Positions 5,155-49,809 of a stretch of 64,000 bases of DNA are shown here, piece by piece (positions within the stretch are counted from its first letter, which is position 1; each line of letters begins with the position of its first letter). Made by a program: the position numbers and the translations under genes. The stretch is from an uncultured Candidatus Saccharibacteria bacterium (GTDB taxonomy: Bacteria > Patescibacteriota > WWE3 > UBA101185 > UBA10185), in NCBI GenBank assembly GCA_964490125.1, contig CAZBAJ010000005.1:4631-68630 (forward strand), read 5' to 3'. Under the pieces are notes generated by a model. The model was given only the letters and a program-made list of their open reading frames with translations, had not been told where the DNA came from and searched no databases.

Positions 5155-6168
5155 ATGAAACGCATGTTGGCTGTTCTGTCCGTTCTTCTCGTCCTGTTGG
5201 GGCTAGTTGCCCAGCAGGTGTCGGCATCTGGGCACATCGTTGTCGAGGGCGGTATCAACCGAGTCGAGGGGTTTGTCCCCTTCTCGCGAGACGGTGTTTA
5301 CACTAGCACTGCGAAACCATACGATGTTGTGGTTACAGTGTATAGAACGATACCGCAAGTACCCGATGTAACGATCCGCATCGAAGGTGAGGCAAGCTGG
5401 GTTCCATGGGTTTCTTCCGGAACGGGAAGTGCTGTATGGGAATACGGCACCTGGCATTTCTGGGGGATCCTTTTTCCCACGGATGGCAAGATCGAGGTTG
5501 GACTGCGCGCGCCTGCGCCCCTGGAGACTAAGCGCATCTCCGTGAATGTACAGGATGGGTTTGGGGCATCAGAGTCGCGGACAGCGTATGTGTCGCCAAT
5601 TGGACAACCGCCGACTGCAACACCGACGGCCACCCCAACGCAGACTGGCGTTCCGCCAACGGTAACGCCGACCAGTACTGCCACTCCGACGGCGACACCC
5701 GCACACACGGCAACGCCAACGGCTGAGCCGTTGATCGTGTTAGAAGGTGGGGTTAACTCACAAGAAGGGTTTACACCCCTTGATCCCACCAAACCGATCA
5801 CTGTCACAACTCGGTTCGCGGCCGACATCATCGCCACGGTGTACAACCGGGGCGGGCCTACTGGTGCGCGCATCACCGTTGATGGGTTCAGCGACTGGAA
5901 AGTTGATGTGAGCGGTACAACCGCAAAGCCCGAGTTCTCGGGGACCTTAGGGGATTGGGGGTCGTGGGACCTCGAAGGCACTTGGTCGGGCGAAGGTCCG
6001 ATAGAGATGGTAATCCATGTCAAGTCCCCACCGCCCTACCGCCCCAATCCCGGGTGGACCGTCAATGTGTCGGCGCGCCCCGCAGGCACAGACGACTGGC
6101 AGGTCCGCCAGGCTGTGATCCAGAACAGTCGCTTCGGCCCCATCTACCTGCCTTTTATCGTTCGATAA
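5155..6168 (+). CDS. GC-rich secreted protein with two duplicated domains joined by a Thr/Pro-rich linker
   Basis: ATG at 5155 follows AAGGAG. Signal peptide MKRMLAVLSVLLVLLGLVAQQVSASG. Two homologous domains of about 140 aa (HIVVEGGINRVEGF... and LIVLEGGVNSQEGF...) are separated by a linker (PPTATPTATPTQTGVPPTVTPTSTATPTATP). High GC begins exactly at the start codon. Confidence 0.6.
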   Translation: MKRMLAVLSVLLVLLGLVAQQVSASGHIVVEGGINRVEGFVPFSRDGVYTSTAKPYDVVVTVYRTIPQVPDVTIRIEGEASWVPWVSSGTGSAVWEYGTWHFWGILFPTDGKIEVGLRAPAPLETKRISVNVQDGFGASESRTAYVSPIGQPPTATPTATPTQTGVPPTVTPTSTATPTATPAHTATPTAEPLIVLEGGVNSQEGFTPLDPTKPITVTTRFAADIIATVYNRGGPTGARITVDGFSDWKVDVSGTTAKPEFSGTLGDWGSWDLEGTWSGEGPIEMVIHVKSPPPYRPNPGWTVNVSARPAGTDDWQVRQAVIQNSRFGPIYLPFIVR

Positions 6169-6288
6169 GATTTAGAGAGCAGGCGCCACGCCCCTCACAG
6201 TCACAAATGTATCCCGCTAATTTGGGGGATTACAGATGATTGAGAGGGCGTGGCGTTTTGCGTATCTGGCAGTATAATCAAACAAGCA

Positions 6289-9200
6289 ATGTTAAAAATT
6301 ATCTCATTTTTTAAAACCAATATTTCAGGAATTGTTTTAGTTGTCATTTGCCTCTATATTTGTCGCGCTAATTACACACCCGGCACTTTTTTAACCGGCT
6401 GGGATACTTTGCATCCGGAGTTTAACTACCGCATTTATTTAAGCCGTATTTTGGACGGGGTGTGGCAGGAACATCAGAGTTTGGGGGCGGTGGCTACTCA
6501 AGCCCACGCTAGCGAGATTCCGCGCATTTTAGTGTTAATGCTTTTGGATGTATTTTTGCCCATGAATATGGTTAGGTATGCTTACGCATTTTTGATGTTA
6601 ATTTTAGGTCCTTTGGGGCTGTACGCGTTTATTAAGTATGTGTTAAGGGGCAGGGGTTTTTGGACGGGGGAAGTGGCGGGTTTTGCCGGCGGGTTGTTTT
6701 ACTTGTTTAATCTTGGGACTTTACAGCATTTTTATGTACCACTGGAGATGTTTTTAACTCACTTTGGACTTTTGGGGTGGTTGTTTTTGACCGTGGTGTG
6801 GTTTTTGCGGGAGGGGAGTAAAAAAGCGCTTGTTTGGTTTTCTGTAGTTACGCTTTTTATGACTTCTCAAGCCCACACCGCAACTTTGTTTTATGCTTTT
6901 TTCCTGTATTTGGTGTTATATCTTCTGACATATTTTGTCGCACACAAATGTAACGGCCAAATTTTTAAAAGAGCCGTTCTTATAATCACAGGAACCCTTG
7001 TTATCAATCTATTTTGGTTTCTGCCAAATGTTTATTTTGCAGTTACTCACGGAAAAGAAATTCAGGAGTCAAAAATCCATTTGTTGTTTTCACAAGAGGC
7101 TTTTTTGCAGAATAAAGAGTTTGGAAACATTAAGGATACCGCTTTACTTAAAAGCTTTTTGTTTAATTGGGGGGAGTATGTGGGGAATAACAGATACGGG
7201 GATTTATTGGATGAGTGGAAGTATCACTTACAACAGCCTTTAGTAATTCCTTTGGGTTATGCTTTTTTTGGTATGGCGGTTCTGGGATTGATTATGGCTG
7301 TTGTTAGGCGGGAGAGGGAACTTGTAGGGATTGGACTAATGTTTTTAGTAGGGTTGTTCTTTATTTTTAATGTTAATCCGCCACTTGGGGGTGTTTTTGT
7401 CTGGTTGCAGGATAATATCCCGCTTTTTAAGGAGGCGTTTAGGTTTCCGTTCACTAAATTTTCCATAGGTTTATTGTTCTGCTATGCAGTATTTTTTTCC
7501 TACTTTGTGTCTGTTGTGGTCAAAGTCTTGGGAGGATGGTCTGCCCATCCGACGAATGGGCTTCCCGCCGTAGGCGGGATCGGGACCCGTTTGGCGGGGG
7601 GCAGACCTCCGACCAGAATACTCGCGTGGTTAGGGTTCGTCGTCCTACTTTTTCTGTCCTTCTACTACTATGCCAAACCCATGTTTACCGGCGGATTAAT
7701 AAGCCCAAGTATGCGCGTTGCCATTCCCCAAAGATACTTTGACATGTTTAGCTATTTTGATACCCAAAAGGAGTACGGGCGGGTACTTAATTTGCCAATC
7801 CATTCCATGTGGGGTTGGGTGTATCACAATTGGGATCCGCAAACTACTCTAGGCTATCAAGGCGCGGGTTTTTTGTGGTTTGGTATAAAACAGCCGTTAA
7901 TTAATAGGGAGTTTGACAGGTGGAATCTTACAAATGAAAAACCTTACATGGAAATTTCCACGGCAATTTATTCCGAGGATGTGGCTACGCTGGAAAAGCT
8001 TTTGGATAAGTACAAAATCCGTTGGTTTTTGGTGGACCAAAGTATTGTAGCGCCAGAGCAGGATGTCAAACAGCTTTTTTATCCCCAAATAGAGTCGCTT
8101 CTTAAGTCGTCCCCAAAAATTAAACTGGAGAAAGACTTTGGGGACGGTTTAGCAGTTTACAAATACTTTCCAGACAAGGACTTTGCCCAAAAGGAGTGGC
8201 TCGATACCTATTATATAGCGGGCGACAGCACTTTTAAGGAGCCAAACGACCCTATTTATAACACCTACGGGAATTACGCGGGAAATGACGAAAAGTCTTA
8301 TCCGTTTGTGGGTATTACCAATTACGACGAAAGCGTAAAGCAGGGTTACATTACCAGCGACGCCAAAAACCTATATTTTAATAATGCTTTGGCTTTTTCT
8401 AATTTGTCTGCCAATATTGCCGGCAATCTGTTTCAATACTTGGTTTTTCTGGACAAGGCGGGGGAGAACTACTTATTAAAATTTGAGCCCGTGGAGAAAT
8501 CGCTTGAACTTGGTTTTTCTTATGATTTAGGCAAACTTGATCCAAACATAGTTGGGGTTGCAATAAATAACTCGACGGTTTTGTCTGTTGTCAAACCGCA
8601 GGTGAGGCAAGTAGTGCTTTTGGATCCAAGTCAGCAAGTAAAAATAAGTCAGCTCTCCCAGTCGTCCAACTTACTTACCGACACAGATTTTTTTAGTGCG
8701 CTGGAAAATTGCAGTTTGGTGGGGGAACAAACCTCGTACTCTTTGGAGCGCGTGGAAAACGGCTTTGTGTTGTTGGCGCAAAATGTGGACGCGTGCGTTA
8801 CCGTAAATTTGCAAAACTATTTGGCCGACGATGCCGAGGGCAAGACGAATGGAGCTACAAGCTTAATCCCGGGCGATTCCTGGAGTGCGGGCAGTATCTA
8901 CCAAGTTACAGTAGGTTTAGGTGAAGGTGCGGTTCTAAACAAGCAGGAAGTTTGCGTTTTTGACGATGTTTCTGGACTTTGCGTTAACCCCCCGCTTGCA
9001 GACGGCAAAACATTTTTTACCCCTCTACCAGGCAGAAATTATAGCTTGCGACTCTTCGCTCGTGGTAAAAAGTCACTTGCTAGAGAGGTTAGGGTAGAGT
9101 ATTCCAATCTAGGACTTTATACGCTAAAGAATGAAAAAGAGTCGGCTTTTAAGCCCAACTTAGTCCTGCAAAAAGACTTGGTCTTAAGCAAGTGGCAATT

Positions 9201-10020
9201 TGAAAAAGACCTTAATTATTCCGGCAATGCGTCCACACTTACCAACTACCCCAGGCTTTGTAATACCGGCGCAACCGCGTTTAATAAGTCCAAAATTTCT
9301 GTTATGGGCAGTTTTGGCACGCCCTTTATTAGGTACGAGTCCCACGGGGAGGCTTTGTGCGACTCTTTTGAATTTCCCATGTTTGACCACGCTAGTGGGG
9401 CGGTGTTGGAGGTTCGTTCAAGAAATTTGGCGGGTATGCCGTTAAGACTTTGTTTAACTAATGAGTATTCAAAGCGGTGCGACTTATATGTGTCGCTCAC
9501 CAAAAATGTTGATTTTACCACGCAGTACTTTTTAGTTCCGCCTATGGGCAATGGTAGGGGCTACACGGTAAATTTTAGCAATTTAATTTTTGGGACTTCT
9601 GTAAGCATTAACGACTTGGAATATGTGGCTTTGGTGCCGTTTCCTTACTACTTGGTACGGGGTATTCACAAGCCACTTACTACTGTAGCTGGGCGACTTT
9701 TGGTTTACAACCAAGCCTTTGAAAACGGCTGGATCGCGTGGTGCGGGTTTAAGCCCTGTCGCGCGGAGCATGTTGTGGTGAATAATTGGGCAAATGGTTG
9801 GGTTTTTCCCTCGGTTCAGGGAGACTCGTCGGTTTCGTCCAGCTCGTCGTCCCAACAAGTCGGTCAACCACCTCAAAATCTATCACCGTCGTCCCCAAAT
9901 GTAATTATTTTCTTTTGGCCACAAGTTTTAGAGTATCTTGGTTTTGGCTTTTTAATCGGCTGGTTTGCTTTAGTCGTCCTGCTCCCAAAACTCCAAAATT
10001 ATAAAAAAAGCTTTGACTGA
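6289..10020 (+). CDS. very large polytopic membrane protein with extracytoplasmic domains (GT-C / YfhO- or AftD-like)
   Basis: About 1240 aa from the ATG at 6289. The track ORF begins at a GTG at 6250 that lies inside an upstream hairpin. About 13 N-terminal TM helices, an internal TM pair, a large central/C-terminal soluble region and a C-terminal anchor helix. Carries an in-frame GC-rich palindromic insertion at about 7537-7610. Confidence 0.5.
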   Translation: MLKIISFFKTNISGIVLVVICLYICRANYTPGTFLTGWDTLHPEFNYRIYLSRILDGVWQEHQSLGAVATQAHASEIPRILVLMLLDVFLPMNMVRYAYAFLMLILGPLGLYAFIKYVLRGRGFWTGEVAGFAGGLFYLFNLGTLQHFYVPLEMFLTHFGLLGWLFLTVVWFLREGSKKALVWFSVVTLFMTSQAHTATLFYAFFLYLVLYLLTYFVAHKCNGQIFKRAVLIITGTLVINLFWFLPNVYFAVTHGKEIQESKIHLLFSQEAFLQNKEFGNIKDTALLKSFLFNWGEYVGNNRYGDLLDEWKYHLQQPLVIPLGYAFFGMAVLGLIMAVVRRERELVGIGLMFLVGLFFIFNVNPPLGGVFVWLQDNIPLFKEAFRFPFTKFSIGLLFCYAVFFSYFVSVVVKVLGGWSAHPTNGLPAVGGIGTRLAGGRPPTRILAWLGFVVLLFLSFYYYAKPMFTGGLISPSMRVAIPQRYFDMFSYFDTQKEYGRVLNLPIHSMWGWVYHNWDPQTTLGYQGAGFLWFGIKQPLINREFDRWNLTNEKPYMEISTAIYSEDVATLEKLLDKYKIRWFLVDQSIVAPEQDVKQLFYPQIESLLKSSPKIKLEKDFGDGLAVYKYFPDKDFAQKEWLDTYYIAGDSTFKEPNDPIYNTYGNYAGNDEKSYPFVGITNYDESVKQGYITSDAKNLYFNNALAFSNLSANIAGNLFQYLVFLDKAGENYLLKFEPVEKSLELGFSYDLGKLDPNIVGVAINNSTVLSVVKPQVRQVVLLDPSQQVKISQLSQSSNLLTDTDFFSALENCSLVGEQTSYSLERVENGFVLLAQNVDACVTVNLQNYLADDAEGKTNGATSLIPGDSWSAGSIYQVTVGLGEGAVLNKQEVCVFDDVSGLCVNPPLADGKTFFTPLPGRNYSLRLFARGKKSLAREVRVEYSNLGLYTLKNEKESAFKPNLVLQKDLVLSKWQFEKDLNYSGNASTLTNYPRLCNTGATAFNKSKISVMGSFGTPFIRYESHGEALCDSFEFPMFDHASGAVLEVRSRNLAGMPLRLCLTNEYSKRCDLYVSLTKNVDFTTQYFLVPPMGNGRGYTVNFSNLIFGTSVSINDLEYVALVPFPYYLVRGIHKPLTTVAGRLLVYNQAFENGWIAWCGFKPCRAEHVVVNNWANGWVFPSVQGDSSVSSSSSSQQVGQPPQNLSPSSPNVIIFFWPQVLEYLGFGFLIGWFALVVLLPKLQNYKKSFD

Positions 10021-10039
10021 AGTGTAATATAATATTCAC

Positions 10040-10258
10040 ATGAAAAAAGCACGCAAAACATTGTACGGAAACATGGTTGCTATTATTCAACCCGCGGAGG
10101 AGGGGGGTTTTTATGCCTACTGTCCTTCTTTACCCGGTTGTGCCAGCCAGGGAGAAACTTATGCTCAAACTGTAGAAAATATTACGGAGGCAATTCAGGG
10201 CGTGCTGTACTATTCTGCCAGGAGCTTAATAAAGTCAAAAGTCTTATGCGCCTTCTGA
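10040..10258 (+). CDS. HicB-like (UPF0150 family) small protein, orphan
   Basis: AIIQPAEEGGFYAYCPSLPGCASQGETYAQTVENITEAIQ matches the HicB/UPF0150 core. No HicA partner seen. The 3' end overlaps the convergent vapC. Confidence 0.4.
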   Translation: MKKARKTLYGNMVAIIQPAEEGGFYAYCPSLPGCASQGETYAQTVENITEAIQGVLYYSARSLIKSKVLCAF

Positions 10259-10641
10259 TAGAACAGGCCGTCTGCAGTTACATAATTACACCCCATCTTT
10301 TTTGCCAACGCTAAGAAGATACAGTCGTACACTGCTGTCTCTCCAAGCACCGATGATAGTTCAAAAGCCTGTTTTAATAACGGTGTGTCTTCTTTTATAT
10401 AAATAAAGTCAGCGTTATCAAATGTCTTAATTATTTCGGTAATTTGGTCGTTGCTTAATATTCCCCATTTAGCTTTTTTAGTTAATGTAGAGATAAACTC
10501 TATTTTTGCTAGATTTGGGCAATAGATCTTTGTTTTAGCATTTTCCAGCTTTTCCAACAGAACCAACGCAAGATGAGAATCGTCTTCTTGTAAGAATATT
10601 TTTACTAGAACACTAGTATCCAGTACGGTCTTAGATGTCAT
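10210..10641 (-). CDS. vapC: PIN-domain ribonuclease toxin VapC
   Basis: N-terminal VLDTSVLV acidic motif. A conserved D/E pattern follows. 143 aa. Confidence 0.7.
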   Translation of the reverse strand: MTSKTVLDTSVLVKIFLQEDDSHLALVLLEKLENAKTKIYCPNLAKIEFISTLTKKAKWGILSNDQITEIIKTFDNADFIYIKEDTPLLKQAFELSSVLGETAVYDCIFLALAKKMGCNYVTADGLFYQKAHKTFDFIKLLAE

Positions 10642-10774
10642 GTCCCCTAAATTTCCTTATAATGGGGACAGAACTTTCAGACACCTTTAAAGTTTTTGCA
10701 TAGGCCACAGCGCCACGCAACACCTTCCAATTTACATCTTTATTTGTAATTCTTTTTCTTGCTACTTTTTCCAT
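10624..10774 (-). CDS. small putative antitoxin (50 aa) overlapping the vapC start
   Basis: My manual translation of the minus strand gives MEKVARKRITNKDVNWKVLRGAVAYAKTLKVSESSVPIIRKFRGHDI. It is below the ORF-track size cutoff. An overlap of about 17 nt with vapC is classic antitoxin-toxin coupling. Confidence 0.35.
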
Positions 10775-10978
10775 GTTTTTGTTTTATCACAAACTATTTT
10801 ATTTGTCTAATTGTCAAGTACGGTGTAGTCACTAATCGTCATGCTCTCTGATTTTCCTTATTATGGGCAAGGAAGCTGGTGTAACGGGCATAGTCGCCAA
10901 ATGGTTTCTTATCATAGCCATCATTTTTTTATTGTCTTTAATTGGTCTTTTCATGACTCACTTTTACCACAAGGTTTG

Positions 10979-11752
10979 TCATTTGCCCAAGATATCTTTG
11001 GCGTAACTTATGGCGTTTTTTGCCATGGGTAGGGTGATATTTTGATACTGGGCGGGAATTTCGTTAACGCTATAGCCTGCTTCAACAAGCCCAAGAATAT
11101 CTGCCACCGTGATACGAGTGCCTTTAATGACGGGTTTCCCAAACCTAATGTTTTGATCCACGCCCACATACTTATTTTGTAGTTTTTGCATAGACGGATT
11201 ATACACCGTTTTCCTAATTTCTTGGACTTTTTTCTGATCCACGGCCAGAGGATTGCCCAGGTAATATTTTGGTTTGTAGTATAGCAGATCCGCTAAGGCC
11301 CTCTCCGGGGTAGCTTGTGAAAATGTCTCCTTGTCCTCTATACCCGCTCTATTTACTAGATACTCTGGTTTTAATTGTTTGCATCTCACTATTTTGTCGC
11401 CATATTTTATGGTTTGACTTTTTTGACCAGCCAAAACAACGGGAGTTATATTTTGGAACATTGCACCCGCCTTGCTTAGTACCGTTTCCAGCGTAATGTA
11501 CGACAGGGGACCGCACAGGGTGCAGGCAACCTCGTAGTCACTAAGCCTGCTAAGCGGGAGTTTGGAGTACACGCCTTTTTTTACTCTATATAACTTGGCG
11601 TCTGCTACATAGCGCTTAATGGTAGTCCAAAGGGTATTTTTGTCTTGAATGTCCCATAAAACCCCTAGATCTTTAGTGGTAAAGATATTTTTAGGCGTTT
11701 CTATTAGTGTTTGTAGTTTTTTAGTCCTGTACATTATTGTACAGGATAACAC
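10979..11752 (-). CDS. AbiEi-like N-terminal domain fused to a C-terminal DUF433 domain
   Basis: The N-terminus (TKKLQTLIETPKNIFTTKDLGVLWDIQDKNTLWTTIKRYVADAKLYRVKKGVY) resembles the AbiEi antitoxin wHTH. The C-terminus (GKPVIKGTRITVADILGLVEAGYSVNEIPAQY) is a DUF433 signature. Confidence 0.5.
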   Translation of the reverse strand: MLSCTIMYRTKKLQTLIETPKNIFTTKDLGVLWDIQDKNTLWTTIKRYVADAKLYRVKKGVYSKLPLSRLSDYEVACTLCGPLSYITLETVLSKAGAMFQNITPVVLAGQKSQTIKYGDKIVRCKQLKPEYLVNRAGIEDKETFSQATPERALADLLYYKPKYYLGNPLAVDQKKVQEIRKTVYNPSMQKLQNKYVGVDQNIRFGKPVIKGTRITVADILGLVEAGYSVNEIPAQYQNITLPMAKNAISYAKDILGK

Positions 11753-11889
11753 AACCTGTTCGTGGTGTCAAGACACTGTACTAGTTGCAGATCTATTAAA
11801 GAGATAATTCAGTATCTATTTAAAAAGCGTGAGATAATGAAATAAGTCAAGTTCAAGCAAGAGTCGCCAAAAACCGACAACCTATAGTA

Positions 11890-11918
11890 TTGACATAGTC
11901 TACCGAGTAGGTTACAAT
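11890..11918 (+). promoter_or_regulatory. strong sigma70-like promoter TTGACA-N17-TACAAT with upstream CCTATAGTATTG motif
   Basis: TTGACA at 11890-11895, a 17-nt spacer, TACAAT at 11913-11918. Predicted TSS near 11925. A 5-bp hairpin plus T7 tract follows at 11931-11952. Confidence 0.5.
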
Positions 11919-11983
11919 GATAATTGTTTGAGGCTGGTATACAGCCTTTTTTTGTAAATTCCACCTGCCTAAAAAAATATATT

Positions 11984-13456
11984 ATGCCGTTTGGTAAAAA
12001 TAGTGCCAATAAAAACGCAGGTTTGCAAACAAAACGCGTAAAATTACCCGTTGCGTTTTTGGTAGTCGTGCTTGCCGTGCTTGAAACAGTAAGCTTTGCC
12101 ATGGTTTTTAAGACTCACAAAACACATTTAGATACCCTTACCAGTTTAATGGGCGACAAGTTGGAGTCGGATGACAGAGAACAGATCAAGGGTGAAACTG
12201 ACGAGCAACAGGAGCAAGGATATACACAGAACGACCCGGGTTCGTGGTTTTGGCGCAATTCGCAAAGTCAAACAAAACTAGCTGCCAATAAAGATAATAA
12301 CAATAGCGAGGACAAAAAAGAGGGGAGTAATAAAAACAAAAAGGAGCCTAAGGGTAAAAAGAAGGTTGTACCTCCGGTCAATCCGGCAAATCAACTTCCC
12401 AGTGTGACAATAGACCTTGGTTTAGAGGGAAAAAGCTTTAAATACGGAGAAACTGTGTCAATAGCTGTCACTTCTACCGACTTTGATGGGGTGGTGCGGG
12501 AGCTTAGCCTTGTTGTTAACGACATTGTTAATGAGACTGTTGTAACATCGTCCCACATTTTTAACCTAGAATCCCTGCCGTTAGGTGTGTATAGGATTTA
12601 TGCTAAAGCTCTTGACGACAAGGGGGGAGAGGGAGTTTCCAGGACGATTACGATTTATGTTGACCCGCTTAACGCGTTTGACCCGGATATTTCTGAACCT
12701 ATTTCTGAGCCCATTTCGGATAGTATTTCCTCTGTTATTTCAGATACCGTGTCGGCAATAGTGTCCGAACCCATTTCTGAGGCAATTTCGGAGGCTCTAA
12801 GTACCGATGTTTCCAGTATTATTAGCGACATTATTTCTACACCTGTTTCCGATACCATATCATCGACAATGTCCGAAGCCATTAGCGATGTTGTCTCTAC
12901 GCCATTGTCGGATGAAATAAGTGACACGGTTTCAGCAGTGATTTCGGATGTCCTGAGTTCGGATATTTCCAACATTGTAAGCGATGTAGTTTCCACTCCC
13001 ATTTCGGATACCATATCAACGATAGTGTCCGACGCTATCAGCAATGTTGTCTCCACGCCATTGTCGGATGTAATAAGCGATGCGATCTCATCGGTAATTT
13101 CGGGTGATATATCCCAAACCATATCGTCCATACTTTCTAGCGACCTTTCTAGTGCGATTAGTGCGCCAATATCGCAAATCCTATCCCAAGATCTTTCGGC
13201 AGGCATATCGGACGCCGTATCCGATTTAATTTCCGATGTCCTAAGTACCGAAATATCCGATGTTTTGAGTGACGCGGTATCGACAGCTCTATCTGATACT
13301 GTCAGCGGGGTCATTTCTCAAGTTGTAAGTAGTCCTATTTCTGTTGTAATCAGCGATACACTGTCGACTCCTGTTTCGGGAACCTTATCGTCAGTAATCT
13401 CTGATGCTACTAGCGAGTCAGTTTCCGACTTTATTTCTACATTGTTAAGCCATTAA
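11984..13456 (+). CDS. membrane-anchored Ser-periodic tetrapeptide-repeat protein, (S-x-x-I/V/L) about 58 units
   Basis: ATG at 11984 (MPFGKNSANK...) followed by a signal-anchor helix. The track start at TTG 11924 coincides with the predicted TSS. Lys/Glu-rich spacer, a beta-rich domain of about 90 aa, then an uninterrupted array SEPISEAISEALSTDVSSIISDIISTPVSDTIS... with Ser every 4th and an aliphatic residue every 4th position, running to the C-terminus. Confidence 0.7.
   Translation: MPFGKNSANKNAGLQTKRVKLPVAFLVVVLAVLETVSFAMVFKTHKTHLDTLTSLMGDKLESDDREQIKGETDEQQEQGYTQNDPGSWFWRNSQSQTKLAANKDNNNSEDKKEGSNKNKKEPKGKKKVVPPVNPANQLPSVTIDLGLEGKSFKYGETVSIAVTSTDFDGVVRELSLVVNDIVNETVVTSSHIFNLESLPLGVYRIYAKALDDKGGEGVSRTITIYVDPLNAFDPDISEPISEPISDSISSVISDTVSAIVSEPISEAISEALSTDVSSIISDIISTPVSDTISSTMSEAISDVVSTPLSDEISDTVSAVISDVLSSDISNIVSDVVSTPISDTISTIVSDAISNVVSTPLSDVISDAISSVISGDISQTISSILSSDLSSAISAPISQILSQDLSAGISDAVSDLISDVLSTEISDVLSDAVSTALSDTVSGVISQVVSSPISVVISDTLSTPVSGTLSSVISDATSESVSDFISTLLSH
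12686..13447 (+). repeat. degenerate 12-nt (4-codon) tandem repeat inside the CDS
   Basis: Repeating units of the form tcNgaNNNNatN/tcNNNNgtN across about 760 nt. Codons vary between units, so this is not recent slippage, but the S-x-x-aliphatic period is strict. The antisense ORF 12655-13314 is an artefact of this repeat. Confidence 0.8.
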
Positions 13457-13488
13457 CTTGGCGTTACTATATTGTTAGATACTAATTT

Positions 13489-15336
13489 ATGTCATCAAAA
13501 ACAAACATCTTGGATAAGGCTTTGTGGGCGGTTTGGATTTTAATTTGCGTCGGTCAGGCGGTTGTTTTTAGTGGCGCCTACATAAGTGTCTACGATCTTC
13601 CAAAGATCCTAGTTTTGTGCGGGGGTATTTGCGGGCTTTGTTTTTTACTGCTTGTTAAGCGTCAAACAAAGGTAAGTATCGCGTTACTTTACACTCTGGG
13701 TATTTTTATTGCTCTAGTCGCCTTTAATATGGTTTTTTCCACCAATAGGTACAGGTCGTTTTGGGGCGATAAAGTCTACAACGACAGTTTTTTAGCCTTT
13801 ATTCTCTATTTTGTATTGCTAGCTTTGGTGTCGTTTGACCTACTTAAGACAAAGACCATTCTCGCTGGAATAAACTTATTAGGACTTCTTGTGGCAATTT
13901 CTGGTCTAATTCACGCTTATTTACTTTACATTCTTAAGCTTGACATTGTTTCGTACGACGGGCGTATTACTGGAACAATCGGGCAGGCAAATATCCTTGG
14001 GGGAATATTAGTTGCCGTTTTGCCGGTATCTATTTTGCTGTTTACCCGGTCAACCAGGCTTTTACACAAGATTTCTTATGCCGTTAGCGCCTTAATTATT
14101 TTTGCTTGTTTGCTGGTTTCCATGTCCAGGGGCGCTTTTTTGGCTTTAGGAGTGTTGGCTCTGGTGGAAATTGTTGTTAGGTTGAAAAGGGCTAAGTGGC
14201 GATTGGTGTTTTTAATGCTTGTTACAGCGTTTATTGCCGGTTTATTTTTTGTTCCAAAGGATTTAATAGCAAATTCAAAGTCGCCCTACCTTATTAGACG
14301 CTTTTTTTCTTTTAGAGATGGAAATAAGCTTTCTGACATTAGGTTTGAGATTTGGAAAAACTCCATTCCCGCGATTGCTAAAAAACCCTTAACAGGGTGG
14401 GGAAACGCAACTTTTCAAAATGTCTACCAGATGCACATAAATCCCACAAACGCCAATCAGACCCTTTTTAAGGAGGTGGAGACATCTCACAACATTGTCA
14501 TAGACGCCCTTTTGGAGTGGGGAATTGTGGCGTTTCTAGTTGTTTTGGTAGGAGTAGTCGTACTTGCTAACAAGTCGTCCGCTCCAAAACTGGTCAAATA
14601 CGGCTTATTGGCGGTGTTCATAAGGAGTCTTATTAACATAAATTCCGGTATAGTTTGGTTCTTATTTTTTGTCTATGTGGGTTTGTTGGTGCGGGACTTT
14701 AGGGGCAGGCAGTTTGACTTAGTGGGGAAGCGTTTGTTGGCGGTTTGGGTGACACTTTTTGCCCTTTCTGTGGCGATTTTTTGGTTGTTTATTAATTTTG
14801 GTCGGGCAGAGGTCTATGAAAAAAAGGCTCTAAAAGAGGGCGACGCCAGTAAGTCGGCGGAATACTACAAAACCGCTTTAAGCCATAATCCGTATAAAGA
14901 ATCGTTGTGGGGCAGTTATTTAGCGTTGTTGCTCTGGAAAGGGGATTTAACCCAGTTTGAACAGACGCTAAAGACGGTCGACACGCATTTTAATGACTAC
15001 CGTGGTAATTTTTACGCCGGGCTTTACTACATGCGACTAGGGGAGACCCACAAGGCTGTTGATCGCTTTAATACCGCCTATAAGCTAAACGCCAGGGATC
15101 CAAAAACTACCCACTATTTGGGACAATTGTATTATTCTCTGGGCGACCATTCTAGGGCGGAACAGATGTTCTTGTACACTGTCAACCTGGATGTTAGGAA
15201 CTTCAACGACGATTATATTTACCTTTGCGACATTGAGATAAGGCGGGGGGATTACAAGAAAGCCAGGAAGTACATGGAACAAGCCCCGGATTCGTCTAGG
15301 AAAGACTATTACGACAACCTCCTTAGGGGGCATTAG
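13489..15336 (+). CDS. Wzy_C-family (O-antigen ligase / PglL-like O-oligosaccharyltransferase-like) membrane protein with C-terminal TPR repeats
   Basis: About 12 TM helices with a periplasmic loop containing an ...SMSRGAFLALGV... Wzy_C-type motif. The C-terminal 180 aa form TPR-like helical repeats. Lies immediately downstream of the Ser-repeat protein. Confidence 0.55.
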   Translation: MSSKTNILDKALWAVWILICVGQAVVFSGAYISVYDLPKILVLCGGICGLCFLLLVKRQTKVSIALLYTLGIFIALVAFNMVFSTNRYRSFWGDKVYNDSFLAFILYFVLLALVSFDLLKTKTILAGINLLGLLVAISGLIHAYLLYILKLDIVSYDGRITGTIGQANILGGILVAVLPVSILLFTRSTRLLHKISYAVSALIIFACLLVSMSRGAFLALGVLALVEIVVRLKRAKWRLVFLMLVTAFIAGLFFVPKDLIANSKSPYLIRRFFSFRDGNKLSDIRFEIWKNSIPAIAKKPLTGWGNATFQNVYQMHINPTNANQTLFKEVETSHNIVIDALLEWGIVAFLVVLVGVVVLANKSSAPKLVKYGLLAVFIRSLININSGIVWFLFFVYVGLLVRDFRGRQFDLVGKRLLAVWVTLFALSVAIFWLFINFGRAEVYEKKALKEGDASKSAEYYKTALSHNPYKESLWGSYLALLLWKGDLTQFEQTLKTVDTHFNDYRGNFYAGLYYMRLGETHKAVDRFNTAYKLNARDPKTTHYLGQLYYSLGDHSRAEQMFLYTVNLDVRNFNDDYIYLCDIEIRRGDYKKARKYMEQAPDSSRKDYYDNLLRGH

Positions 15337-15448: not shown

Positions 15449-16060
15449 ATGACTAAAAGCGTTAACTACAAGTTAATAGGTGCCTTAGTAGTAGCCAGTT
15501 CCGTAGGTGTGTTAAGTGGTGGAGTAGCCTATGCCGGTTGTACTTCTAACTACGGTGGTGGTCAAACCTGTATCTACAACAAAAACTTTGACATTGAGAA
15601 AAAGGTTAGAAAGTTAGGGGACGACTCCTGGAAGGATAAAGTAACCGGAGTTGACGAGGGTGAAGTTGTAGAATTTAAGATAAAGGTAAAAAATGAAGGG
15701 GAAGTTAGTGTAGATGACATGAAAATGTCTGATAAACTTCCTAAAGAGATGGAAAGAGTTGGCGGAGACGGTTTGACCGAATATTGGGACGACTTTGATG
15801 CTGGCGAGACCAAAACCTTTATTATAAAGGCTAAGGTTAAAGACAGCGAGTACGATAGAAAAAACTTTGAGAAGTGTGTGGTCAACAAAGCCGAGGTTTT
15901 GTACGACGGTGATGATGAGGCTTCTGATACCGCTACTGTGTGTTACAGCGACGGTGCTCCTACCGAGTTACCTAAAACTGGTGGAAGCTCCTTGTTTTAC
16001 GGGTTTCTTGGTTTAGGTCTTACAGCTTTTGGCGCTTTTGCTAAAAAGCTAAAAAAGTAA
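15449..16060 (+). CDS. LPXTG-type cell-surface protein (sortase substrate)
   Basis: N-terminal signal peptide. C-terminal sorting signal LPKTGG followed by a hydrophobic stretch and a KKLKK tail. The central acidic beta-rich domain resembles DUF11. Confidence 0.65.
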   Translation: MTKSVNYKLIGALVVASSVGVLSGGVAYAGCTSNYGGGQTCIYNKNFDIEKKVRKLGDDSWKDKVTGVDEGEVVEFKIKVKNEGEVSVDDMKMSDKLPKEMERVGGDGLTEYWDDFDAGETKTFIIKAKVKDSEYDRKNFEKCVVNKAEVLYDGDDEASDTATVCYSDGAPTELPKTGGSSLFYGFLGLGLTAFGAFAKKLKK

Positions 16061-16135
16061 AACGACCAAACCAATCCTGTTAATCTCGTGATTATATGTT
16101 GACACGCGGGTCCGCTTTGATTTGACTTGGAAAAA

Positions 16136-16203
16136 CTTAGACCTAGGGTGGAGGGGAGTGGTTTGCCGTACAGCTTACTAGCCCCTTCCATCCTAGGTCT
16201 AAG
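16136..16203. other. long imperfect inverted repeat (about 21-bp arms, 25-nt loop) in the substrate-sortase intergenic region
   Basis: cttagacctagggtggagggg ... ccccttccatcctaggtctaag. Upstream at 16105-16119 is cgcgggtccgctttg, a truncated relative of the GC-rich element family. Downstream is a CAA-rich tract. Confidence 0.5.
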
Positions 16204-16304
16204 TGTCGCCATGCTACGGTACGCTAATGGCAACAGCAACACTAACAACAACAATAAGTGACGACATTTAAACATAAATTTTTCCAAATGCAATATGTAA
16301 TACT

Positions 16305-17012
16305 ATGACAAATATTTTAGCCAACAGAAAACTATCGACTGGGATTTTAGGAGGCATAGCATTTGTATTTGCTGTAGTTTTATTCTCCAAGTTATTCTTA
16401 AAGACAAATAACATCGGAGGATTTGCTGTTTGGGTTAATTCTTTTGGGAAAACTATTACCAATAAATTGGGTTTGGGGGATAGTACATCGACTTTTGGTA
16501 AAAATTCAGGCAAAGAGGCAAATCCATCCGTTTTTAAAGAAGTCGCAAAACCTGTTTATTTGTCGCCCAAAACTATTACTTTTAAGGATAAAACTTTAGA
16601 TGTGGAGGAAATTGGCGTGGAACAAGGCGGAATACTAGGTGTGCCTTCCGGTTGGTATACTGCAGGTTGGTATAAGGACGGGGCAAAAGCAGGAGAGGAA
16701 GGCAATGTAATTATTGACGGTCATTACGATACTAATACCGGCGCGCCCGGCGCGTTTTGGGAGTTGAAAGATCTACAAGTTGGTGATAAAGTGTCGTTAA
16801 CGGACTTATTAGGTCGCAGATTTGATTATAAAGTCAAAGAAAAGTCGTCAATAGCCATTACCGATCCCGAAAGAGCCAAAGTTTTTGCAAGTTCGCAAGC
16901 TAAAGAGTTAACTTTAATTACTTGCGGAGGCGTTTGGGACTATGCCAGTGGAACTTACAACAAGCGACTTGTAATTAAAGCGGAATTTGATAAGATGGAA
17001 AAAAGTTGGTAG
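16305..17012 (+). CDS. sortase (transpeptidase)
   Basis: N-terminal TM anchor. Catalytic His region (IDGHYDT). TLxTC motif (LTLITCGG). Downstream Arg. Confidence 0.75.
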   Translation: MTNILANRKLSTGILGGIAFVFAVVLFSKLFLKTNNIGGFAVWVNSFGKTITNKLGLGDSTSTFGKNSGKEANPSVFKEVAKPVYLSPKTITFKDKTLDVEEIGVEQGGILGVPSGWYTAGWYKDGAKAGEEGNVIIDGHYDTNTGAPGAFWELKDLQVGDKVSLTDLLGRRFDYKVKEKSSIAITDPERAKVFASSQAKELTLITCGGVWDYASGTYNKRLVIKAEFDKMEKSW

Positions 17013-17022
17013 TTTCCTTTTT

Positions 17023-17063
17023 AATCGGGGAGACGGCGCGGGGCAGTGGCCGCCTCTCCGATT
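17023..17063 (+). other. GC-rich stem-loop downstream of the sortase gene
   Basis: aatcggggagacggc / gccgcctctccgatt, a 15-bp imperfect stem with an 11-nt loop. No 3' U-tract. Confidence 0.4.
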
Positions 17064-17107
17064 AAGACTCATGAGTAATTTATTCCAACAAATTAGAAAG
17101 GACTAAA

Positions 17108-18457
17108 ATGAATGTAAAGAGATCTAATGGTCAAGTTACTTACTCAAGTTTTGGCGACAAGGGTGACGCAAGGCAGTCGGACAGAGGCGATAGACAAGAC
17201 AGCAGGATGGACAGAGCCGACAGAGGTGATAGAAACGGAGATCGTCCGTCAAGCGTAAGTTACTACCGCGAACCCCAACAAGGTCAAACAAATCAGTCAA
17301 ATTATCAAGAATATTTAGATACTTACCAGGGAGAGATGGTTCAGGTGGAGGGTGTACTAGAAATGTTGCCAGATTATGGTATTTTGCGACAGGATGACCG
17401 AGCCAGTGGCGATGATAATCTGCCTAGAGATGTCTATATAAGCCTTTCCCAGGTTAAGCGGTTTTCTTTACGGGTGGGCGACAAGGTAAAAGGTCAAGCC
17501 AGACCTCCAAAGGAGGGCGAGCGTTATCTTTCTATGTTAAAGGTTGAGCAAGTAGAGGGTTTGGATCCAGAAGAAGCTAGAAAAAGGCCATCGTTTAATA
17601 AACTTACGCCAATTTTTCCTACCGAATGGATGCATTTGGAAACCGAGCCTGACATAATTGCCACAAGACTTATTGATATAATTTCTCCTATTGGTAAGGG
17701 TCAAAGAGCAATGATTGTAGCTCCGCCCAAAGCGGGAAAAACCTTTTTACTTAAAGACATTGCAAATGGTATCACGGTGAATTATCCGGATGTCATACTT
17801 ATGGTGGCATTAATAGGGGAGCGACCGGAAGAGGTAACCGATATGCGACGCAGTGTTAAGGGCGAGGTTTTTTCCAGCAACTTTGACGAAAAAGCAGAAA
17901 ATCAAACAGGTGTTGCGGAAGTATGCTTAGAGCGGGCTAAACGCTTAGCGGAAAAGGGTAAAGATGTGGTTATTTTAATGGACTCGTTAACCAGGCTTGC
18001 CCGCGCCTACAACATGGTGGTACCACCTTCTGGTAGAACACTTTCCGGTGGGTTTGATCCGTCCGCGCTATACCCGCCTAAGCACTTTTTTGGTGCCGCC
18101 CGTAAATTTGAAGAAGGCGGTTCTCTAACCATTGTGGCTACAGCTCTGGTTGATACGGGTTCCAAGATGGATGATGTGATTTTTGAGGAATTTAAGGGTA
18201 CAGGTAATATGGAGTTGCGACTTGACAGATCGCTTTCCGAAAGACGGATTTTTCCCGCCATAGACATTAAAGCAAGCTCTACCAGGCACGAGGAAAAGCT
18301 GTACGACGAGAAAACTTTGGAATCAGTGTATAGGTTGCGTAGAATGGTGGACTTGTTGGACGACAGACAGGCTACAGAACTTGTTATTACCCGACTTAAA
18401 AAGTCAAAAACTAACAAGGAATTTTTGGAAACCTTGCATCAAGCACAAGCCGCCTAA
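17108..18457 (+). CDS. rho: transcription termination factor Rho with Arg/Asp-rich N-terminal extension
   Basis: Walker A (APPKAGKTFLLKDIANGI) plus the RecA-like core typical of Rho. N-terminal low-complexity RDR-rich region. Confidence 0.9.
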   Translation: MNVKRSNGQVTYSSFGDKGDARQSDRGDRQDSRMDRADRGDRNGDRPSSVSYYREPQQGQTNQSNYQEYLDTYQGEMVQVEGVLEMLPDYGILRQDDRASGDDNLPRDVYISLSQVKRFSLRVGDKVKGQARPPKEGERYLSMLKVEQVEGLDPEEARKRPSFNKLTPIFPTEWMHLETEPDIIATRLIDIISPIGKGQRAMIVAPPKAGKTFLLKDIANGITVNYPDVILMVALIGERPEEVTDMRRSVKGEVFSSNFDEKAENQTGVAEVCLERAKRLAEKGKDVVILMDSLTRLARAYNMVVPPSGRTLSGGFDPSALYPPKHFFGAARKFEEGGSLTIVATALVDTGSKMDDVIFEEFKGTGNMELRLDRSLSERRIFPAIDIKASSTRHEEKLYDEKTLESVYRLRRMVDLLDDRQATELVITRLKKSKTNKEFLETLHQAQAA

Positions 18458-18628: not shown

Positions 18629-19819
18629 ATGCTATTTACCATAGGTCGTCCGGTGTCAAAAAGGTTTGTGGAGATGCGCTTTACCAACCTTATCCCATAC
18701 GGACGCAACAAAATTTTAGTCCTCCTAAAAGACCTTGGTCTATTCTTTAGATGGCTGGGCGTGTATTTTGCGCTTAAAATCAAAAAATTCTTCCTTTTAG
18801 TGGGAAAAACCCTAGTTTTAGTCGTCCAAAAAGTCCAGGATCTTAAAAGTTATTTTGTGGCAAAACTTATTTGGTCACGGGGGAGGCTGGGCAGGCCGGT
18901 GGCAAATTTTATCGTCATGCTTTTGGCTTTAAGCGTATTCTTTTTTGGAGAAATTCTTAGCGGGTCAAAATTAGTGGTTAGCAAAGAGGTTGACCCAGAC
19001 TATTTAAAAACGGTTGTGGACATTATTCCGGAAAAAAACATTGCGCTAACCACTATTCCGGAAGAGCGCCAACGGACGCAGTATCTGGCTTACAAAATCG
19101 AGTCGGGCGACACTTTATTTGGCATTGGAAATAAATTTAAGGTTTCTGTTGACGCGTTAAAGTATGTAAATAATTTGTACGACGGATCGGTGCTAAAGGT
19201 TGGGAGTGAAATTGTGATTCCGCCTGCTTCTGGCTTGATTCATAAAGTAGAGGCGGGCGATACACTTGCGTCCATTGCTAAAAAATACTCCGTACCGTCA
19301 CAGGCTATTGCGGACTTTAACTACCTGTTAGAGCCTAATAAATTGGCTTTAGGGACAGAACTTGTTATTCCTGATGCTAAAATTCCTCAACCTGTAGTTT
19401 TGGGTTTGCCTGTTGGACTTGCCACTATTGCCCAAGGTGTTAACGACGCGAGTGCTAAAAAGGGTTGGTGTATGTGGCCTACATCGGTTAGCGTAATTAC
19501 CCAAAACTTTTCTTGGTATCATAATGGTTTGGATATTTCCGGAGGTGGAACGCCCCCAATTTATTCTTGCGCGGGCGGCGTGGTTGTTAGAGCGGGTTGG
19601 GATCCGTTTGGGCTTGGTTTGCATGTTAGAGTCGACCACGGTAACGGTTACGAAACAATCTACGGTCACATGAGTAGACTAGATGTAAGCTACGGCGACA
19701 AAGTCAAAAAGGGCGAAATTGTAGGGATTATGGGTAGTACAGGCAACTCTACAGGTCTGCATGTTCATTTTATGATAAAGTACAACGGGTCGCCACAAGA
19801 TCCTTTAAAGTATATTTAG
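18629..19819 (+). CDS. LysM-domain M23 family peptidoglycan metalloendopeptidase
   Basis: Two LysM repeats (YKIESGDTLFGIG..., HKVEAGDTLASIA...). C-terminal M23 motifs (HNGLDI, GSTGNSTGLHVHF). TM region near the N-terminus. Confidence 0.8.
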   Translation: MLFTIGRPVSKRFVEMRFTNLIPYGRNKILVLLKDLGLFFRWLGVYFALKIKKFFLLVGKTLVLVVQKVQDLKSYFVAKLIWSRGRLGRPVANFIVMLLALSVFFFGEILSGSKLVVSKEVDPDYLKTVVDIIPEKNIALTTIPEERQRTQYLAYKIESGDTLFGIGNKFKVSVDALKYVNNLYDGSVLKVGSEIVIPPASGLIHKVEAGDTLASIAKKYSVPSQAIADFNYLLEPNKLALGTELVIPDAKIPQPVVLGLPVGLATIAQGVNDASAKKGWCMWPTSVSVITQNFSWYHNGLDISGGGTPPIYSCAGGVVVRAGWDPFGLGLHVRVDHGNGYETIYGHMSRLDVSYGDKVKKGEIVGIMGSTGNSTGLHVHFMIKYNGSPQDPLKYI

Positions 19820-48341: not shown

Positions 48342-48929
48342 CTAGGCTTCTAATTCAAAGGGTTTTTTGTATTTGTCCAAAATTTGCCTAATAAAGTCCA
48401 AATGATCCTGCGGGGTCATAGTTTTGGCAAAGTATTCTTTAACCACCTCTTCAATTACTTCCAGCGAGCGTTTATCTATTTCTTTTAGCCTACTTTGCTT
48501 GTACGACTCGAGTTCTGCCTCCATTTTTACATATCCGCCCGCAATTTTGTCGCGCAATTCCTGCTCTGTTTGGATAGCCTCCTTATGAAGCGCGGTTTTA
48601 AAGTCGTCCGCCTCTTTTAGAACATCGGTTTTAAATTCCTGTGTGGCGTCTTTAAGTTGCGCTTGAACAAAGTCCTTGGATTCGTCAACGGCAAGATCTG
48701 TTTCTTTTATCATTCTTTTAGCGCGTTCGTTAGACTCTTTTATGATATTTAGCGACTTGGTTTTTGCCTCCTCCAAAATTACTAGTGCTTTTTTGTAGGC
48801 TTGATCACGGGCTACCTCTTCGTCCCGTCTTTTTTTGTCATACATTGACGATGCCATTACCAACAACGCTCCAAAAAAAGAAAAAATTACCAAAAGAATT
48901 AGAAGCAAGGCGATTGTAGGCAGTTCCAT
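48342..48929 (-). CDS. membrane-anchored coiled-coil protein resembling F-type ATP synthase subunit b
   Basis: Single N-terminal TM (ELPTIALLLILLVIFSFFGALLVMA) followed by a long Ala/Lys/Glu-rich helix (ARDQAYKKALVILEEAKTKSLNIIKESNERAKRMI...). No other ATP synthase genes adjacent. Confidence 0.35.
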   Translation of the reverse strand: MELPTIALLLILLVIFSFFGALLVMASSMYDKKRRDEEVARDQAYKKALVILEEAKTKSLNIIKESNERAKRMIKETDLAVDESKDFVQAQLKDATQEFKTDVLKEADDFKTALHKEAIQTEQELRDKIAGGYVKMEAELESYKQSRLKEIDKRSLEVIEEVVKEYFAKTMTPQDHLDFIRQILDKYKKPFELEA

Positions 48930-49788: not shown

Positions 49789-49809
49789 AGTTTGAGTATA
49801 CAATAAAGT

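Follow-up and report, generated by a model that had tools for sequence, protein, structure and literature searches.

A conserved RNA hairpin between a surface-protein gene and its sortase gene in candidate division WWE3

Stem-loops lying between the genes of an operon are a well-known source of unequal expression, as in pufBA-hairpin-pufLMX of Rhodobacter capsulatus and in papBA, malE-REP-malF (REP, repetitive extragenic palindrome) and the rplL-rpoB attenuator with its RNase III site in Escherichia coli. Hairpins processed by RNase III are likewise familiar, for example R1.1 of phage T7, the E. coli rnc leader (rncO) and the rpsO-pnp leader. Here we describe an RNA hairpin from the window, by which we mean the whole 64,000-nucleotide (nt) stretch of contig CAZBAJ010000005.1 that was analysed, from an uncultured bacterium of candidate division WWE3. 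The hairpin (16135-16204, + strand) lies between the gene of a sortase substrate with a DUF11 domain and an LPXTG motif (15449-16060, +) and the gene of a class F-like sortase, sortase 1 (16305-17012, +). It is a real, uncatalogued RNA family of a familiar functional kind and the new part of this locus, the gene pair itself being ordinary.

The WWE3 hairpin resembles the puf, pap, malE-REP-malF and rplL-rpoB elements in being a stable sense-strand structure between the gene of an abundant structural protein and downstream genes whose products are needed in small amounts, co-transcribed and sometimes followed by a U-run. Unlike those elements, it has a much longer and more perfect stem (~30 base pairs, bp) and an apex whose sequence is invariant over a phylum-level lineage, the downstream start codon is often 10 nt or less from the stem base without a Shine-Dalgarno sequence, and it is known here from sequence alone. 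As in the RNase III hairpins, at least two helical turns of near-perfect double-stranded RNA (dsRNA) carry small internal loops near the top, and a cut would separate the two cistrons; in contrast to them, it is not matched by the Rfam models, which include such leaders.

Structure and conservation of the hairpin

An earlier note on this DNA, made from the letters alone, had placed a long imperfect inverted repeat at 16136-16203 within about 240 nt of non-coding DNA, and the repeat is indeed present, in a spacer of 244 nt (16061-16304) between substrate and sortase 1. It folds into 21 contiguous pairs, then 4, then 2, with a free energy of -47 kcal/mol, as against an average of -21.3 kcal/mol for shuffles of the same interval (z -8.0), none of 200 of which was as good. 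An extra A-U pair widens the hairpin to 16135-16204, so that it consists of a lower stem of 22 bp, a 2x2 mismatch, a 4-bp GGU/ACU segment, a UU/UU internal loop, two G-C pairs and a 6-nt loop. Several of its pairs are G-U pairs, which become mismatches on the - strand, where the fold is weaker. The 74 nt from the substrate stop codon to the hairpin (16061-16134) are weakly structured, and a CAA-rich, G-poor tract, read off the sequence, lies between hairpin and sortase start (16231-16255). This CAA-repeat tract had also been pointed out in the note; it is present but not conserved even in the closest relatives (loci L004, L005 and L008), and because it is missing there we do not count it as part of the conserved element. 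It could be a Rho entry site, an idea to which we give little weight since the tract is not conserved.

We scanned a genome collection and obtained 80 sortase loci, the 46 closest to the window and 34 more distant class F-like ones. Folding of the spacers gave a long hairpin in nearly every locus, with a stem sequence that differs from locus to locus and an apex that is common to them. The family now comprises 55 loci with 53 distinct sequences, and each locus has one hairpin, on the coding strand and downstream of the DUF11 gene. Equal flanks were cut around the apex, and 38 distinct sequences were aligned with MAFFT without the use of structure; the stem came out free of gaps. The shared structure consists of 28 pairs, the UU/UU internal loop, 2 further pairs and a loop of 3-8 nt. 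In this MAFFT alignment, standard pairs fill 91.5% of the cells, as against 39-52% in registers with the 3' partner displaced by 1-3 columns; both sides have changed in 19 of the 30 pairs (171 cells), and none of 500 shuffled controls matches any of five pairing measures. With all 53 distinct sequences, 22 of the 30 pairs covary and 91.9% of the cells pair (39-51% when shifted), in an alignment that was fitted to the model, the MAFFT alignment being the independent result. Compensatory changes beyond both the shuffled and the shifted controls mark the hairpin as a conserved structured RNA.

Some parts of the hairpin are near-invariant, namely the stem base (UU.GG / CC.AA), the two G-C pairs of the upper stem and the apex G-G-U-U-Y-G ... 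C-U-U-A-C, which encloses the UU/UU loop and has a similarly constant G.G or G.U mismatch just beneath it. The apex of the window copy is a slightly divergent version of the family apex (GAGUGGUUUGCC...GCUUACUAGC). The 5' arm is G-rich, and G-U pairs number 167 in the family as against 18 A-C mismatches; this excess of G-U over A-C fits selection on the + strand RNA and not on the DNA. The hairpin is a selected sense-strand RNA structure and not a chance repeat.

The same asymmetry bears on the proposal that the inverted repeat acts as DNA, as a palindromic operator, a recombination site or a REP-like mobile repeat. The palindrome is long and near-perfect, and co-varying half-sites could conceivably come from a dimeric binding protein, but a strand-asymmetric ratio of 167 to 18 is explained only by selection at the level of the + strand RNA. 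Besides, the loop varies in length, the conserved UU/UU and G.G mismatches are non-complementary in DNA, and a single copy per 64 kb whose syntenic position is fixed in 55 loci is unlike dispersed repeats, so that we find a role as DNA scarcely credible.

A covariance model built from the hairpin alignment was applied to the window, to the genome loci and to metagenome loci. In the window it matches only once in 64 kb (model R1, 16127-16211), with 73.2 bits on the + strand and 39 bits on the - strand. Each of 43 genome loci, four of them outside the seed, has a single + strand match of 61-90 bits, and none of the 34 distant class F-like sortase loci matches. The genome loci had been selected via the sortase, whereas a metagenome collection was searched by the apex pattern alone; of the 80 loci retrieved there 11 pass the model, each with a DUF11 gene just upstream on its own strand, and in 9 of them a sortase gene comes next, where the contig allows. 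As a structured RNA the hairpin is strongly supported, and it is specific to the WWE3-like lineages sampled.

No family of Rfam 15 reaches its gathering score with the window hairpin or with the majority type. Such scores were reached only by transfer RNAs (tRNAs) in the window and eight related loci, and at E values up to 10 the hairpin finds nothing but generic hairpins resembling microRNA precursors, 40-70 bits or more below their thresholds. Mimicry of signal recognition particle (SRP) RNA, of 6S RNA or of a T-loop was considered and rejected, the apex having neither a GNRA tetraloop nor the motifs of SRP domain IV, and the loop varying in sequence and length. A coding explanation was rejected as well, as loop-length differences of 1-3 nt together with covarying stems preserve no frame. 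The literature yielded no sortase-linked RNA motif in the Candidate Phyla Radiation, the only relevant paper being that of Kantor et al. (2013).

Position of the hairpin and its possible function

The distances on either side of the hairpin vary among the relatives. From the DUF11 stop codon to the stem there are 3-114 nt (median 45), with only 3-17 nt in a third of the loci, and the first in-frame ATG of the sortase gene is at most 30 nt from the stem base in 28 of 41 loci and at most 10 nt in 14 of them. No Shine-Dalgarno sequence was found within the short gaps between hairpin and ATG in these 41 loci. The ATG starts can be taken as real because the N-terminal peptides are conserved among relatives. 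The tightest spacers consist of 11 nt, the hairpin and 8 nt (L031) or of 4 nt, the hairpin and 7 nt (L011), and in L031, L044, L011, L032 and L037 neither side of the hairpin has room for a promoter. Since the hairpin fills the whole spacer in many relatives, the DUF11 and sortase genes must be co-transcribed. In the window's subclade the gap from hairpin to sortase ATG is wider (43-100 nt; 100 nt in the window), and a block, TTTGCAATATG, just before the ATG is shared by the window with its closest relatives L004, L005 and L008.

Some exceptional loci are of note here. L036 is the one related locus that lacks the motif; a minus-strand tRNA gene (3741-3828) stands there between DUF11 and sortase genes, and no rho gene follows downstream. 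L036 and L104, which has lost its sortase gene but not the motif, serve as natural experiments in favour of the regulatory reading given below. Besides L104, L046 (905-4320, +) is rearranged and has in order a DUF11 gene, a sortase copy, a degenerate motif (38 bits), a sortase fragment of 96 amino acids (aa) and rho. Separately, we observed that the spacer between DUF11 stop and hairpin of L005 (1002-1080) is filled by three tandem copies of a 25-nt unit (GCTTGCGAGACGCAATTGTAGGGCA).

These distances also bear on whether the hairpin is a plain intrinsic terminator of the surface-protein gene, the sortase having its own promoter and no regulatory read-through taking place. A terminator would fit the U-run (at least 5 T in 8) that follows the stem in 17 of 41 loci (~40%), the nearness of the hairpin to the stop codon in a third of the loci, and the 43-100 nt with the conserved TTTGCAATATG ahead of the sortase ATG in the window's subclade. 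A U-run is missing, however, from the window copy and from over half of the others. A terminator scan found none at the window hairpin, whose stem is followed by GTGTCGCCATGC, with no T-run, so that it is not a GC-rich stem directly followed by a U-run as an intrinsic terminator would be, whereas the ordinary terminators elsewhere in the window are short GC stems with TTTTT behind them. Where the ATG is within 10 or 30 nt of the stem base no promoter fits and read-through is needed, and terminators do not keep an invariant apex while the proteins around them diverge to 40-50% identity. We therefore consider a plain terminator unlikely.

A stand-alone small RNA gene between the two genes, sequestering a protein or otherwise acting in trans, would account for the invariant apex, the single copy per locus, the U-run behind many copies and the lack of a match to any known family. 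It would have to fit, though, into loci with 3-17 nt from stop codon to stem and 0-10 nt from stem to ATG, which leave room for no promoter, be it its own or that of the sortase, and the hairpin keeps to one strand and one position with respect to the DUF11 gene. Release by processing is possible, in which case a small RNA would merge with the cis-acting reading given below; as a separate gene we hold it to be very improbable.

On the whole the best explanation, and one towards which we lean with modest confidence, would be that the hairpin is a cis-acting intercistronic regulatory element that uncouples the expression of the DUF11 protein from that of the sortase. It probably keeps the surface protein abundant and the products of the downstream genes scarce. 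By this means the structural substrate could accumulate, while the sortase and the read-through to rho would be limited. Stabilisation, partial termination, translational occlusion and also processing may each contribute, as these modes do not exclude one another. As a 3' barrier that blocks 3' exonucleases, the hairpin would stabilise the upstream DUF11 segment of the messenger RNA (mRNA); in the ~40% of loci with a U-run behind it, part of the transcripts might end there; and a helix of -40 to -55 kcal/mol could shut ribosomes out of a start codon that is 0-30 nt away and lacks a Shine-Dalgarno sequence. In addition the helix, perfect over 24-30 bp, would be an ideal substrate for a double-strand RNase of the RNase III type, whose substrates have about 20 bp or more of dsRNA. 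Cleavage would then split a substrate mRNA capped by the hairpin from a sortase mRNA with a short leader. The invariant apex (UU/UU loop and G.G or G.U mismatch) might be the recognition or positioning site of such an RNase or of another RNA-binding protein, which is the least secure step of this scheme. The apex may even serve a dedicated factor as docking site, through which expression of the sortase and of the essential rho would be gated downstream of a surface-protein gene that is highly transcribed.

Several points weigh against regulation in cis by the hairpin. Termination, processing, stabilisation and occlusion are all modes that we infer from the anatomy of the locus, and a passive stabiliser or terminator needs no invariant apex, so that a part of the function is unexplained. 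The window hairpin itself is without a U-run and 100 nt away from the sortase ATG, and TTTGCAATATG before the start codon could be a separate promoter of the sortase. Because of the missing U-run, the 100-nt gap and this conserved block, the window copy may chiefly form the 3' end of the substrate transcript. An additional GC-rich hairpin, mostly without a U-run, stands between stop codon and motif in about half of the loci, and L104 (7207-9509, -) keeps the order DUF11, motif (73 bits) and rho with no sortase gene immediately downstream. Finally, no recurrent complement of at least 9 nt to the upper hairpin was found from -900 to +1600 nt in 40 loci, where matches are merely scattered.

Three further ideas were examined and set aside. 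A classical switch between terminator and antiterminator is not supported, the apex having no alternative pairing partner nearby in the 40 loci. An argument from leaderless mRNAs was dropped, as -10-like hexamers show no clear peak 5-9 nt before the starts of 51 window genes; a loose count gave a Shine-Dalgarno sequence in 18 of these 51 genes. Shunt-like termination and reinitiation over the stem base found no constraint in the summed single-stranded distances, which range from ~11 to more than 170 nt. The earlier suggestion that the spacer is an attenuator or processing site setting the stoichiometry of substrate and enzyme is still the best reading, the hairpin filling the spacer and leaving no room for a sortase promoter in many relatives, but its exact mechanism is one that we only infer. 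That the hairpin belongs to a conserved family and has an invariant apex goes beyond what the note contained.

The gene block and the second sortase locus

The hairpin and its two flanking genes are the core of a block that is conserved across candidate division WWE3; on a single strand it comprises the DUF11 (LPXTG) gene, the hairpin, the class F-like sortase gene, rho and a LysM/M23 peptidase gene. The substrate has 203 aa with a signal peptide, a DUF11 domain (Pfam match at 3e-7), a C-terminal DTATVCY...ELPKTGG motif, a hydrophobic helix and a KKLKK tail. Its C-terminus reads ELPKTGG-SSLFYGFLGLGLTAFGAFA-KKLKK, the hydrophobic part being 20 residues long, and the sorting signal scores 16.5 bits with TIGR01167 (LPXTG_anchor), above the cutoff of 15.9. 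Sortase 1 has 235 aa and an N-terminal membrane anchor and belongs to the sortase family PF04203 (E 4e-21, 75.4 bits, cutoff 26.6), with a catalytic triad of His140, Cys207 (LTLITCGG) and Arg221 that is invariant in an alignment of 26 homologues; sortase chains in the PDB are matched at E 2.5e-11. The best NCBIfam class is class F (NF033748, 89.3 bits), ahead of the next sortase class by 50 bits, and several homologues carry the NCBI name 'class F sortase'. The curated cutoff of 166 is not reached, for which reason we speak of sortase 1 as class F-like and do not count it among the members of class F.

In comparison with class F sortases (NF033748) and sortase-anchored DUF11 proteins, the likeness consists in the His-Cys-Arg triad, the top score of class F and a neighbouring substrate with LPXTG, hydrophobic stretch and basic tail, whereas sortase 1 differs as a divergent clade fixed in an operon-like block with rho and the LysM/M23 peptidase gene. 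In some 40 of the 46 closest loci the ORF that immediately precedes the sortase encodes a protein of 200-260 aa that ends in ...DTATVCYG..ELP[KEDSNA]TG, a hydrophobic helix and a basic tail. The adjacency of the two genes, which holds in about 45 related genomes, upholds the claim of a cognate pair that had been made in the note, and argues that sortase 1 and its LPXTG substrate genuinely belong together. The open reading frames (ORFs), the canonical LPKTGG substrate and the two sortases that it had listed are all in place. It had also proposed a search for more LPXTG proteins; in the window, a permissive scan of all ORFs of at least 60 aa found a canonical sorting signal in 15449-16060 alone. 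What did not hold is the surprise at sortases and sorted proteins in a reduced organism. Such a pair in WWE3 is no news, because sortases and predicted sorted proteins had been reported for WWE3 and TM7 in 2013 (Kantor et al., 2013; PMC3812714).

Downstream of sortase 1, and starting right after its stop codon, is a GC-rich inverted repeat of 17 bp (17021-17065, +; 88% complementary), 43 nt before rho and without a T-run. The Rho protein (17108-18457, +; Pfam Rho_RNA_bind and ATP-synt_ab) is syntenic in about 44 loci, and the LysM/M23 peptidase gene (18629-19819, +), identified by Pfam labels of called genes in L002 and by tblastn synteny, is the last of the block. As a side observation, the first part of Rho (17108-17330) encodes an N-terminal extension of some 70 aa that is of low complexity and made up largely of Arg, Asp and Gly (DRGDRQDSRMDRADRGDRNGDR), ahead of the RNA-binding domain. 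By tblastn, the relatives have the order DUF11, sortase, Rho and LysM/M23 peptidase on one strand, with identities to the window proteins of 69-91% for Rho, 37-76% for the sortase and 41-79% for the DUF11 protein. Homologues of sortase 1 and their loci come from candidate division WWE3 and from unclassified metagenome-assembled genomes of Patescibacteria, and two short assembled contigs carry the locus in identical form. The DUF11 gene and the block are absent from the 34 distant class F-like sortase loci, which belong to other Patescibacteria, Chloroflexota and Actinomycetota.

Farther upstream, the window encodes a protein of 1256 aa (6250-10020, +) that has no Pfam or NCBIfam match and ends in ...FFWPQVLEYLGF, a hydrophobic helix and a basic tail. 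The C-terminal signature NNWxNGWxF ... FWPQxLEYLGF, followed by a transmembrane helix and K/R, also ends a protein of 780-1020 aa that adjoins the DUF11 gene in many relatives; large ORFs with this signature lie upstream of the DUF11 gene in L006, L010, L022, L026, L031-L033, L037, L040, L041, L044, L046, L048 and L104. This tail could be a candidate tripartite sorting signal of a non-LPXTG type, and possibly a type of substrate for the second sortase of the window. A second long hairpin (~6185-6254, +; 26 bp, -39 kcal/mol) lies directly in front of the 1256-aa protein and overlaps its annotated GTG start; it is not matched by the covariance model of the sortase-operon hairpin.

The second sortase (49810-50478, +) matches the Pfam Sortase family (1e-18, 67.6 bits, cutoff 26.6), and its class is not assignable, the best NCBIfam model (class C) giving 46 bits against a cutoff of 160 and the matches to PDB sortases being weak. 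Among the window ORFs of at least 60 aa, the permissive sorting-signal scan found no substrate for it. Its start lies 21 nt from the divergent gene 48970-49788 (-), after which comes 48342-48929 (-), so that the divergent pairing described in the note is confirmed. The 21-nt interval (49789-49809; AGTTTGAGTATACAATAAAGT) has a GTATAC palindrome giving TATACT or TATACA boxes 6-7 nt from each start codon, and could hold overlapping divergent promoters of two leaderless mRNAs.

The two divergent genes had been likened in the note to subunits c and b of the ATP synthase, the first without the proton-binding carboxylate, and a check at the level of folds bears this out, with only c or b chains as top matches in the profile searches of the PDB and with a superposition of the C-terminal hairpin on c subunits by Foldseek. 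The c-like protein (48970-49788, -) begins with a signal or transmembrane helix, continues with an extracytoplasmic beta domain of some 130 aa and ends in a hairpin of two helices, whose loop reads EALGRNPLA and whose helix 2 lacks a carboxylate. It has no Pfam match, and NCBIfam c-subunit models give about E 1e-3 and 17-19 bits, below their cutoffs of 44-128. Its family is large (more than 896 relatives in a collection at 90% identity, 532 clusters at E <=1e-30 in a library at 50% identity), several members are labelled subunit c/K by the Joint Genome Institute (JGI), and the seven best matches of the family profile to PDB sequences are all ATP synthase c chains (E 1.5e-3 to 2e-2). In 31 family members the EALGRNPLA loop is invariant, in keeping with the two-helix membrane hairpin and R-Q/N-P polar loop of subunit c, and helix 2 has no Asp or Glu in any of them, so that the ion-binding carboxylate is missing; opposite Glu62 of Spirulina subunit c (PDB 2wie) the family has Phe, Thr or Ala.

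An AlphaFold model of the c-like protein (predicted local distance difference test, pLDDT, 83) has an N-terminal helix (16-35), the beta domain (45-174), a short helix and the two-helix hairpin (199-271). With Foldseek the hairpin superposes on F-type c subunits at a template-modelling (TM) score of 0.75-0.89 and a root-mean-square deviation of 1.1-2.2 Å, and the beta domain is structurally closest to capsid decoration or cement proteins of phages (Pam3 8hdt_G, E 6e-5; Borrelia phage BB1, Sf11 and TW1). Given the known topology of subunit c, this extension would face outwards. The b-like protein (48342-48929, -) has a single N-terminal transmembrane helix and a long coiled coil, as subunit b does. 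A profile of it and its positional equivalents matches ATP synthase b best in the PDB (9o19_X, E 1.9e-5), plus four b chains; the single-sequence NCBIfam match is at E 0.07 only.

The gene context in relatives decides how the pair is to be read. On four other Patescibacteria contigs (L083, L084, L208 and a JGI contig) an operon runs c-like, b-like (240-270 aa), delta/OSCP, alpha, gamma, beta and epsilon, and one of the four, 1.1 Mb long, also carries the hairpin locus L023. The operons with a c-like first gene extend over 6001-11942 (L083), 6001-12200 (L084) and 8001-14159 (L208), and upstream of them, on the opposite strand, there is a giant gene (1330 to more than 3800 aa) with a MerR-like N-terminus. 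No recognisable subunit a gene was found in L083, L084 and L208. The window has no delta, alpha, gamma, beta or epsilon gene anywhere in its 64 kb (tblastn), which extends the note's statement that no other ATP synthase genes are adjacent. In the window, L085 and L086 the pair adjoins no F1 genes, and L085 and L086, of the window's subclade, share the same detached arrangement of a PEGA protein gene, the sortase gene and the divergent c-like and b-like genes.

In gene order and in protein architecture, then, the module is like the F-type synthase: the two-helix hairpin, the Arg-Asn/Gln-Pro cytoplasmic loop and a glycine-rich helix 1 recall AtpE, and the single-helix coiled coil recalls AtpF, in the order c, b, delta, alpha, gamma, beta, epsilon. 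It is unlike it in having no Asp/Glu at the ion-binding position, an N-terminal extracytoplasmic beta domain, no subunit a gene in the operons examined and, in the window, a pair that is detached from F1 beside a sortase. The pair is a divergent but genuine Fo c and b of a Patescibacteria-type ATP synthase, split from F1 in the window's subclade, and is the normal, if odd, Fo module of the lineage and not a new invention. This agrees with the statement that the membrane subunits of the WWE3 ATP synthase 'lack significant homology' (Kantor et al., 2013; PMC3812714), beyond which we found in the literature no ATP synthase of Patescibacteria that lacks subunit a or the carboxylate of c.

The note had gone further and suggested that the pair may be a repurposed stalk module. 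The pair is no orphan invention, as it heads F1 operons in relatives, but a change of use is conceivable where it is detached, in the window's subclade only. There it could have become a membrane structure independent of F1 and tied to the sortase, with a c-ring lacking the carboxylate, a crown of beta domains and a b stalk. The absence of delta, alpha, gamma, beta and epsilon genes from 64 kb and the recurrence of the detached arrangement in two further loci of the subclade would fit this, as would the missing helix-2 carboxylate throughout the c-like family and the likeness of the beta domain to phage capsid decoration proteins. No long contig of the subclade appeared, moreover, among the best 120 of 7999 matches in a search for WWE3-type F1 beta, although these best 120 are all that the search covers. 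Against it, other Patescibacteria, one genome with the hairpin among them, have these proteins at the head of complete F1 operons. In F-ATPases the cytoplasmic loop of subunit c contacts the central stalk. Because the EALGRNPLA loop is undiminished and invariant in the detached copies too, the F1 partner is probably elsewhere in the genome, and we regard the repurposing as doubtful. More far-reaching, and distinctly unlikely to our minds, is a WWE3-type c-ring that cannot bind protons or sodium canonically, has no subunit a gene, bears the beta crown and, in the subclade, would be uncoupled from F1 under divergent control shared with the sortase, that is, an envelope structure derived from a rotor and not an energy converter. 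The docking of a dedicated factor at the hairpin apex may be the more probable of these two proposals.

Significance

A subunit c without its carboxylate and with an extracellular domain, in the absence of subunit a, could change how the energy metabolism of these organisms is read, if it holds genome-wide. To our knowledge, gene regulation in the Candidate Phyla Radiation is almost entirely unexplored, because its members are uncultivated. The WWE3 hairpin is a concrete and testable regulatory element for such an uncultivated lineage. In essence, by the model favoured here, a cell with a minimal genome would keep its surface protein far in excess of the anchoring enzyme and shield the essential rho gene downstream.

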